From: Escherichia phage S127 BCL3
Reading direction: 5' to 3' (one strand)
DNA length: 64,000 bases
Sequence record: OQ626344
A program made the translations under genes and the position numbers. The notes under the pieces were generated by a model. That model ran no database searches and was not told the origin of the DNA. It was given only the letters and a program-made list of their open reading frames with translations. Shown here in pieces: positions 5,284-5,670 of this stretch; within the stretch, counting starts at the first letter, position 1; each line of letters starts with the position of its first letter.

Positions 5284-5312
5284 TTGACACGACGCTGAAG
5301 ATTTAGTATCAT
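5284..5312 (+). promoter_or_regulatory. sigma70-type promoter
   Basis: TTGACA (5284-5289), 17-nt spacer, TATCAT (5307-5312). Followed by hairpin AGAGGG-gttggt-CCCTCT in the leader of the hpf-like gene. Confidence 0.6.
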
Positions 5313-5358
5313 TGTTTTCAAAGAGGGGTTGGTCCCTCTTCTTTAAAAGGAACACATT

Positions 5359-5670
5359 ATGCAAATTGAAATCACTGGCAACGTAGAAATCACTGAAGGT
5401 ATGGTGTCTTTCATTTCCAACAAAATGTCCAAGCTGGAGCGTTTGCACCCCTCTGCCAACTATGCACGTGTGAGTGTAAAAGTTGAAAATGATCACCAGG
5501 AAGTTATGGCTTTCATTTTTGACACTTCTGGAAAAGAAGTTATCGCCAAAGCTAAAGGTAGTGATGCTTACGAGGCAACTGACCGTATGGTAGATGTTGC
5601 AGCACGCCAGTTGGCTAAGTGTGGTGGAAAGAAAGGTAAGGGAAAAGGTAAAGTAAAGATTGACTTTTGA
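5359..5670 (+). CDS. hpf: ribosome hibernation promoting factor / RaiA (YfiA) family protein, 103 aa
   Basis: MQIEITGN-VEITE...KLE...G-x-E-x-A-x-A-x-G-x-D-x-Y-x-A-x-D...RQL-x-K is collinear with E. coli HPF (MQLNITGNNVEITEALREFV...ARQLTKHK) as I recall it. Lys/Gly-rich C-terminal tail. Confidence 0.85.
   Translation: MQIEITGNVEITEGMVSFISNKMSKLERLHPSANYARVSVKVENDHQEVMAFIFDTSGKEVIAKAKGSDAYEATDRMVDVAARQLAKCGGKKGKGKGKVKIDF

Follow-up and report, generated by a model that had tools for sequence, protein, structure and literature searches.

A divergent hibernation-promoting factor gene conserved across Vequintavirus phages, with a thinned ribosomal RNA contact surface and a long basic tail

Introduction

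Escherichia phage S127 BCL3 (sequence record OQ626344) carries, within the 64,000-nucleotide stretch that was analyzed in full and is referred to here as the window, a small gene whose promoter, leader and open reading frame (ORF) together occupy positions 5,284 to 5,670, and which a preliminary description made from the letters alone had taken for a ribosome hibernation factor of the HPF/RaiA type with its own promoter and a leader hairpin. Our comparison leaves very little doubt that this gene is a conserved and selected member of the HPF/YfiA family. It is a genuine but divergent copy of the short hibernation-promoting factor (HPF), the counterpart of ORF144 of phage rV5, and it combines the family fold with a thinned contact surface and a tail that is longer and more basic than that of the E. 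coli protein.

Across bases 4500-7000, the window is 98.8% identical to Escherichia phage B9-1, 98.1% identical to vB_EcoM-ECP26/ECP32, and 93-95% identical to rV5, FV3 and about 110 further rV5-like phages (genus Vequintavirus); its primase/helicase is 100% identical to the B9-1 counterpart. The window is thus rV5-like, and because rV5 is a lytic myovirus of E. coli O157 (PMC3606486), the earlier reading of the DNA as that of a virulent phage was right. In the GenBank record of rV5 (DQ832317), the gene is ORF144, named ‘sigma 54 modulation factor’, and the element preceding it is annotated as ‘Sigma70-type promoter; P144’, while other records use the names ribosome hibernation promoting factor, ribosome hibernation factor and RaiA, the last being the RefSeq label. 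The rV5 product (gp144, ABI79209) is encoded by the same gene at the same position behind the same promoter and is 98% identical to the window protein, which differs in ending with KIDF instead of KIDFGE and in having N21 and T56 where rV5 has H21 and N56.

HPF genes had been listed for rV5, FV3, JES-2013, FFH2 and O157 typing phage 14 by Mizuno et al. (2019, Nat Commun 10:752; PMC6375957), who placed the phage HPFs among gammaproteobacterial sequences and proposed that a viral HPF might compete with the cellular protein and so prevent the formation of ribosome dimers (PMC6375957). The gene (hpf) was reported again as an auxiliary gene in five rV5-like gut isolates by Mathieu et al. in 2020 (PMC6969025). 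The literature that we searched contained no functional work on the phage protein other than that of Mizuno et al., and the paper on a Keio host-factor screen with the V5-like phage LL12 does not mention ribosomes, hpf, rmf or raiA. The gene, promoter P144 and the hypotheses on the gene are therefore already in the public record and are not new as a discovery. What the present comparison adds is the core-gene status, the purifying selection, a sister lineage, the losses at R17, K80 and K89, and the longer basic tail.

The ORF encodes a member of the HPF/YfiA family

The ORF lies at 5359-5670 on the + strand, starts with ATG and encodes 103 amino acids (aa) that begin with MQIEITGNVEITEG and end with ARQLAKCGGKKGKGKGKVKIDF before the stop codon, and its core domain (5359..5622, + strand) matches PF02482 (Ribosomal_S30AE) over residues 3-88. 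The hidden Markov model (HMM) comparison that had been suggested as a check gave an expectation value (E) of 1.1e-12 and 48.9 bits, above the gathering cut-off of 23.7 bits and covering profile positions 1-83 of 88, and the NCBIfam HPF/YfiA model TIGR00741 was passed as well, with 47.1 bits at a cut-off of 40.9. The homologous protein of a sister lineage, designated P0004 and described below, reached 50.6 bits with PF02482.

The best solved relative is E. coli HPF (YhbH; 2rql, 4v8h and 6h4n; E 6.9e-12 for 2rql), which is collinear with the phage protein over residues 1-89 at 40% identity and has a length of 95 aa versus 103-105 aa in the phages. The two proteins share G7, T12, K22, K25, G58, A63, D69, Y71, D75, D79, R83, Q84 and K87. 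This supports the claim of an HPF-like ORF collinear with the bacterial protein. E. coli RaiA (YfiA, protein Y; 1n3g and 4v8i) has the same fold and the same family of binding pocket, and it resembles the phage protein in having a C-terminal extension beyond the length of HPF; that of RaiA heads to the site of RMF, the ribosome modulation factor, and goes with 70S rather than 100S hibernation. In sequence, however, the phage protein is nearer to HPF, RaiA chains in the Protein Data Bank (PDB) being matched only at E ~0.1, and the two tails are unrelated, the phage tail being basic and that of RaiA acidic at its end. Among the PHROGs, the gene falls into a family of its own, phrog_12469 (E 5.6e-69), to which no function is assigned there, while the general S30EA family phrog_8990 was matched only at E 1e-6.

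The predicted fold was compared with known structures by using an AlphaFold 2 (AF2) model made from the single sequence, which has low confidence with a mean predicted local distance difference test score (pLDDT) of 61 and in which the elements follow one another as E3-7, H13-29, E38-45, E48-54, E60-67 and H70-88 (E, strand; H, helix). In a Foldseek search of the PDB with this model, all of the 30 best matches (30/30) were HPF, YfiA/RaiA or plastid pY, and E. coli HPF ranked first. The template modeling score (TM-score) of the model to E. coli HPF, normalized to the target, was 0.73-0.76 by Foldseek, and for 6h4n_x it was 0.71 when normalized to the query and 0.76 when normalized to the target, with a root-mean-square deviation of 2.7 Å over 91 columns. 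The low-confidence model thus resembles HPF, in agreement with the structural likeness to E. coli HPF/YfiA that had been put forward for comparison.

Three usually basic rRNA-contact positions are replaced in both phage lineages

To compare individual residues, the phage protein was placed in one alignment with E. coli HPF and a diverse set of 29 representatives from bacteria. Both phage lineages, that is, the rV5-type phages and the sister lineage, keep 18 family-conserved residues (M1, G7, T12, K22, K25, L26, V42, E43, G58, A63, D69, Y71, A73, D75, D79, R83, L85 and K87), and they have in common a set of replacements at positions conserved in bacteria, namely V40 for L, A70 for M, E72 for A, T74 for I and A81 for L, together with an inserted S57. 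Among the basic contact positions, K22, K25, R83, K87 and K91 are retained by the phage protein. In contrast, R17 is replaced by V, K80 by V (T in P0004) and K89 by G (S in P0004; E. coli numbering), and these three losses are found in both lineages. In the bacterial sample, a basic residue stands at the K80 position in 20/29 proteins (K), at the K89 position in 23/29 (K/R) and at the R17 position in 22/29 (R/K).

Published structures and mutants assign several of these residues to ribosome binding. In Staphylococcus aureus HPF, K27, R30, K84 and R87 form conserved basic patches, and their quadruple mutation abolishes ribosome binding (PMC4889938); these residues correspond to K23, K26, K80 and R83 of the E. 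coli protein. In recent cryo-electron microscopy structures of Gram-negative HPFs, 16S ribosomal RNA (rRNA) is contacted by K80, R83, K87, K89 and K91 (bioRxiv 10.1101/2025.10.07.680626), and in the E. coli 100S structure, R33 and K93 touch the E-site tRNA and H95 stacks on G693 (bioRxiv 10.1101/382572). None of R33, K93 and H95 of E. coli HPF is kept in the phage protein, and neither is H55, which together with R33 accounts for the E-site tRNA and uS9 contacts. The preliminary description had regarded loss of the conserved basic ribosome-contacting residues as evidence against its own reading, and we found a partial loss, three of about eight (R17, K80 and K89) being gone.

The tail is longer and basic in both lineages

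Beyond the core, residues 89-103 and the stop codon (5623..5670, + strand) form a Lys/Gly-rich tail (GGKKGKGKGKVKIDF) with pLDDT <50, which is predicted to be disordered. As previously noted from the sequence, the tail is rich in Lys and Gly. Its isoelectric point (pI) of 10.3 raises that of the whole protein to 9.0, versus 6.5 for E. coli HPF. The phage tails, with 15-17 residues, exceed that of E. coli HPF, which has 8 residues ending with H95, by about 7-10 residues. In the E. coli 100S particle, the C-terminus of HPF extends to the E-site codon position (bioRxiv 10.1101/382572), and the longer YfiA tail is directed to the RMF site (bioRxiv 10.1101/2025.10.07.680626).

Most rV5-type copies end with CGGKKGKGKGKVKIDFGE. 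At 5668-5670 of the window, GGA became TGA, and the ORF is therefore two codons shorter, giving 103 aa instead of the 105 aa ending in KIDFGE in most relatives. Over the 103 residues compared, ECP26 and ECP32 are 100% identical to the window protein. The YN3 tail is two residues shorter, and in APCEc02 and Murica, one-base insertions or deletions in the GGAAAGAAAGG repeat tract leave the tail frameshifted or truncated, which may be real changes or sequencing errors. The sister-lineage tail, YSKSKGIDKRTAKWDY, has the same length and a different sequence, is also basic, and ends with KWDY, which like KIDF follows the pattern Lys-hydrophobic-Asp-aromatic.

The end of the tail coincides with a second promoter-like site (5660..5687, + strand; TTGACT, a 16-nt spacer and TACAAT, with TG before the -10 hexamer), which matches the consensus at 10/12 positions with an extended -10 element and overlaps the last HPF codons. 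A promoter is predicted at the same position in the annotation of phage Gotham, and the genes downstream would be served by this site. In rV5-type copies, the IDF codons double as its -35 hexamer TTGACT, and the tail end may therefore be conserved partly as DNA.

The gene is a core gene of Vequintavirus under purifying selection

The HPF gene was found by tblastn in 117 Vequintavirus records, which equals the number of records having the genus-type helicase at ≥90% identity (117/117), and it is accordingly a core gene of the genus. Pairwise ratios of nonsynonymous to synonymous substitution rates (dN/dS) over the 88-codon core ranged from 0.02 to 0.12, with dS up to 0.68, and the gene is under strong purifying selection. 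No HPF match was found in the next relatives, which are Salmonella, Klebsiella and Raoultella phages and Av-05 with helicases about 54% identical. Eighteen unverified GenBank records (MG0656xx; ‘Campylobacter phage’ A147, C12, D1 and others) are 93-95% identical to the window region and classed as Vequintavirus, and their Campylobacter host label looks doubtful.

Outside the genus, close relatives of the protein are rare. With the phage protein as query, tblastn detected no other phage HPFs at E 1e-3 or better, and with E. coli HPF as query against 50,697 phage records, only about a dozen other matches were obtained, including the Xanthomonas jumbo phage XaC1 and short Listeria and faecal fragments. 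PF02482-type genes are also known from other large virulent phages, namely Cronobacter jumbo phage GAP32, Xanthomonas phage XaC1 and members of phrog_8990; these and the Vequintavirus genes are independent acquisitions. When 1.84 billion cluster representatives were searched exhaustively with HMMER, a single relative at 65% identity (P0004) was returned, all others being ≤44% identical, so that nothing lies between 65% and 44% and no intermediate between phage and cellular HPFs is present in these data. A word-indexed homolog search found only close relatives and P0004, and an IMG/VR scan with the protein gave 2 loci, both rV5-like.

The P0004 protein is about 64-65% identical to that of the window and is encoded on contigs 125-137 kb long, which come from metagenomes and one ‘E. 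coli’ assembly, align collinearly with the window at a DNA identity of 68-75% and have the HPF gene at the same place. Since no cultured phage in the 50,697-record collection has the P0004-type HPF, these contigs represent an unsampled, uncultured sister lineage, which is a useful outgroup. Its loci L013-L016 are contigs of 44-137 kb (Logan, ENA and NCBI GCA_012894635.1), and one copy sits in an ‘E. coli’ genome assembly, where the HPF is named RaiA [Escherichia coli].

Promoter P144 belongs to a series of gene-oriented promoters

Upstream of the gene lies a sigma-70-type promoter (5284..5312, + strand), equivalent to P144 of rV5, in which TTGACA (5284-5289) and TATCAT (5307-5312) are separated by a 17-nt spacer and match the consensus at 11/12 positions. 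Judged from the hexamers, transcription would start at about 5319-5320, 7-8 nt past the -10 hexamer. Throughout the 64-kb window, 22 sites with ≥11/12 consensus positions were found, compared with 1.4 ± 1.2 in first-order Markov controls, and their orientation tracks that of the genes, being + in the first 12 kb, - between 14 and 49 kb, and + again beyond 54 kb. Such near-consensus promoters include those at 1087, 2922, 4796, 7190 and 11243 (+), at 14158-48536 (-) and at 54528-56974 (+). Among 12 relatives of the window, both hexamers of P144 are kept (TATCAT or TATTAT at -10) and at least five spacer positions vary, and the sister-lineage locus L013 keeps the promoter as TTGACA-17-AATTAT with an upstream TG (extended -10).

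The promoter had been described as private to the gene. Its hexamers and spacing were confirmed, and the promoter is enriched and conserved as stated above, whereas its privacy was not borne out: a terminator scan found nothing terminator-like after the HPF stop codon before a strong bidirectional terminator at 9574-9597, and because no such site follows the gene, downstream genes are also fed from P144. The HPF gene lies among small early genes, and P144 is part of a series of early promoters along a long + strand unit. The late genes of rV5 have a different promoter motif (PMC3606486). It was proposed earlier that rV5 is transcribed largely by unmodified host RNA polymerase, and the 22 gene-oriented sigma-70 promoters fit this reliance.

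The leader hairpin is most likely incidental

Between P144 and the start codon, the leader can form a stem-loop (5321..5340, + strand; AAGAGGG-GUUGGU-CCCUCUU) with arms at 5321-5327 and 5334-5340 and a predicted free energy of -10.4 kcal/mol, the stem beginning 1-2 nt from the probable 5′ end of the transcript. A Shine-Dalgarno-like AAGGA, read from the sequence, lies at 5347..5351 (+ strand), 7 nt upstream of the ATG. The hairpin had been reported with CTTCTTT following the stem and had been linked to attenuation. The stem-loop is present; its CCCTCT arm is followed by TCTTTAAAA, and the CTTCTTT string overlaps this arm.

That this hairpin is an attenuator or a translational control element tuning HPF expression is improbable. 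In its favor, a 7-bp stem of the above stability stands between promoter and Shine-Dalgarno sequence and is followed by UCUUU; in a comparison of eight distinct rV5-type leader haplotypes, 4/7 stem pairs, or the basal five by another count, never vary; and a similar stem sequence makes the strong bidirectional terminator-like hairpin at 9574-9597, where GAAGAGGGGTCTTGGCCCCTCTTT is followed by a T-run and the stem is closely like that of the weaker HPF leader hairpin (AAGAGGGGTTGGTCCCTCTT). The stability of the leader hairpin is, however, within chance (z = -1.31; 17/200 dinucleotide shuffles fold as well or better), and the terminator scan did not call it, because its T-run, UCUUUAAAA, is too poor for the terminator criteria. 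No covariation was detected in the stem, the observed score being reached by 240/500 shuffles, and in 3/8 haplotypes an A.C mismatch disrupts the pair at alignment columns 14/29. Among the relatives, the predicted stability ranges from -5.3 to -11.7 kcal/mol, and in 5/12 of them (magaca, nomo, Murica, A147 and YN3), the A.C mismatch weakens the stem to between -5 and -7 kcal/mol. The leader of the sister lineage (L013) has only about 17 nt and no such stem. The predicted fold leaves the Shine-Dalgarno sequence unpaired, and the AAAAGGAAC block of this region is invariant in 7/8 leader haplotypes. No Rfam family reached its gathering score anywhere in the window, and the near-consensus promoters at 1087, 2922, 4796, 7190 and 11243 have no promoter-plus-hairpin structure in common.

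Because the hairpin is within chance, shows no covariation, fails the terminator criteria, is weakened in relatives and is absent from the sister lineage, attenuation is unsupported, and the only novel element of the preliminary description thus fails. It is most likely incidental, or at most a stabilizer of the 5′ end within the rV5 lineage, and not an attenuator. In E. coli mRNA decay, 5′-terminal stem-loops of the ompA type shield transcripts from RNase E.

Possible action of the phage protein on host ribosomes

HPF-family hibernation factors fill the A and P sites of vacant ribosomes (bioRxiv 10.1101/382572; bioRxiv 10.1101/2025.10.07.680626) and keep ribonucleases out of the ribosome (PMC7913689). 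We tentatively propose that the phage protein binds and shields ribosomes in a similar manner, though reversibly, which is the simplest reading and one that we hold to be somewhat short of probable. Soon after infection, host RNA polymerase would transcribe the gene from P144, with added read-through from upstream promoters, and the near-consensus sigma-70 promoter supports such early expression. The protein would bind the 30S decoding channel via the retained K22, K25, R83 and K87, and its long basic tail would follow the mRNA path to the E site and the platform. Because the R17, K80 and K89 contacts are lost in both phage lineages, one would expect weaker binding than by host HPF, with a greater sensitivity to salt, and salt-sensitive binding would fit the absence of the protein from high-salt ribosome preparations. 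Idle ribosomes would thus be held reversibly during infection, at a time when host rRNA synthesis has stopped and with no locking into 100S dimers, and their decoding centre would meanwhile be shielded from nucleases.

Several observations weigh against this reading, in addition to the three lost contacts and the low confidence of the structure model. The Pfam score is about half of that of E. coli HPF (48.9 vs 98.6 bits), and the equivalog cut-offs were missed both for HPF (NF007780, the gammaproteobacterial short HPF; 55.5 vs 125 bits) and for RaiA/YfiA (NF007654; 19.4 vs 158 bits), for which reason the RefSeq name ‘RaiA’ is a family-level label and no orthology call. After expression of rV5 HPF from pBAD24 in E. 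coli, mass spectrometry revealed the protein in the crude extract and not in high-salt 70S or 100S ribosomes, and 100S formation was unchanged (PMC6375957). This outcome comes near to the lack of ribosome association that the preliminary description had named as evidence against its reading; its suggestion that the protein parks 70S ribosomes derives from family membership. As possible reasons, the authors named the growth phase, a genuine loss of binding, or the salt wash (PMC6375957). Their test cells had few 100S particles from the outset, and the negative result, obtained with high-salt washes, weighs against any ribosome model. Moreover, an early general blocker of translation would hit phage translation too, and no mechanism of selectivity is evident. 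The result also sets the protein apart from the phage homologs of bS21 and bL12, which were incorporated into E. coli ribosomes as rV5 HPF was not (PMC6375957), and which are likewise phage-carried translation-machinery genes thought to bias host ribosomes to the phage (Mizuno et al., 2019).

Instead of parking ribosomes, the phage protein might oppose hibernation by contesting the pocket of host HPF/RaiA, its basic tail occupying the path to the RMF site, so that 100S and tight 70S ribosomes would be turned into loosely held ribosomes reclaimable by initiation factors and slow-growing or dormant hosts would be woken. This explanation, proposed in its outline by Mizuno et al. (PMC6375957), is one that we consider unlikely while giving it serious weight: the three lost basic contacts and the absence from salt-washed ribosomes fit a binder that is weak and readily displaced, the tail exceeds that of E. 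coli HPF in length and is basic in both lineages, and YfiA, whose tail heads to the RMF site, antagonizes 100S formation. Yet in cells that had few 100S particles at the outset, the phage protein caused no visible change of the 100S fraction; it needs to be translated in cells whose ribosomes are supposedly asleep; and at least two isolates, APCEc02 and Murica, have a frameshifted or truncated tail, which is thus dispensable or altered in them. A bolder form of the idea, which we regard as speculative, is a hibernation-factor mimic that, with three rRNA contacts removed and a basic tail blocking the RMF/E-site path, would evict or exclude host HPF, RaiA and RMF, or that, in a variant, would shield the decoding centre from defence or stress nucleases. 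If true, the ribosomes of slow-growing or dormant gut E. coli would stay usable for the phage, which would amount to a countermeasure to host dormancy. Ribosome hibernation is a main route to bacterial dormancy, and dormancy limits most phages. A hibernation-factor homolog strongly selected throughout one of the commonest groups of E. coli phages suggests interference with dormancy. The shared contact losses, the conserved basic tail, the natural tail-truncated isolates APCEc02 and Murica, and the sister lineage make the role of the gene more testable.

The negative ribosome association (PMC6375957) would also suit a protein that has kept the fold and lost ribosome binding, its basic tail and remodelled surface having taken on another RNA or protein target, such as an mRNA of phage or host, double-stranded RNA (dsRNA) or a defence component. 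The six clade-specific replacements (V40, A70, E72, T74, A81 and the inserted S57), which accompany the loss of R17, K80 and K89 in both lineages, the placement in phrog_12469 apart from the S30EA family phrog_8990, and a likeness of the fold to dsRNA-binding domains, which are among the weaker Foldseek matches (1x49, E 0.017), point in this direction. Such a repurposing is nonetheless doubtful, since most family-defining residues and four basic contacts are kept, which would be unexpected if the ribosome pocket had been abandoned, and the gene context offers no other partner, the neighbours having no Pfam match. That the gene is a neutral passenger, recently captured from a host and without a role in infection, is extremely improbable. 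A relatively recent transfer was suggested by Mizuno et al. from the high conservation (PMC6375957), but among the 1.84 billion representatives the closest cellular homologs are ≤44% identical, on which ground recent host capture was rejected, and neutrality was rejected on the dN/dS of 0.02-0.12 and the core-gene status, the gene being present in every Vequintavirus record and in the sister lineage at about 64-65% protein identity.

Neighbouring genes and other regions of the window

Directly downstream of the HPF gene lies the homolog of rV5 ORF145 (5686..5787, + strand), a 33-codon hydrophobic peptide that is annotated as a coding sequence in rV5, magaca, nomo, Murica and YN3 and as a ‘putative membrane protein’ in phage I29. 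In the alignment, its start reads ATAGGC in the window versus ATGGG in 12/12 relatives, and the window homolog may be untranslated or may use a rare start codon. The following 89-aa gene (5814-6083, +) is called ‘sigma 54 modulation factor’ in magaca, nomo, nom, pangalan, ECP26 and other records. As a second HPF, it was rejected for having no PF02482 match, and the label appears to have spread by annotation transfer from APCEc02, where it was placed on the wrong gene.

The early region also contains a small paralog family of about 75-110 aa (527-760, 4087-4311, 4301-4558 and 6444-6776; BLASTP E 1e-14 to 5e-4) and two proteins of about 131 aa that are 31% identical to each other (4598-4969 and 6776-7171), for which the rV5 record notes similarity to a protein of Listeria phage A118. 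None of these paralogous proteins has a Pfam match, and their arrangement points to local duplication events to either side of the HPF gene. The window contains no tRNA or tmRNA genes and no linked translation-RNA module.

Further downstream, about 2.5 kb (11100-13650) is devoid of ATG-initiated ORFs of ≥50 aa and holds the maximum of the cumulative GC skew, at which the gene direction changes from + to -. By offset, it corresponds to the ‘non-coding’ region 104013-106618 of rV5 (Kropinski et al.). Short direct repeats (ACTGTTTACGCATA in three copies and a 20-nt repeat in two) and, at 12815-13015, nested inverted repeats lie in this region, into which the near-consensus promoter at 11243 points and in which no Rfam family was matched. 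The region is a candidate for a replication origin or a non-coding RNA region.

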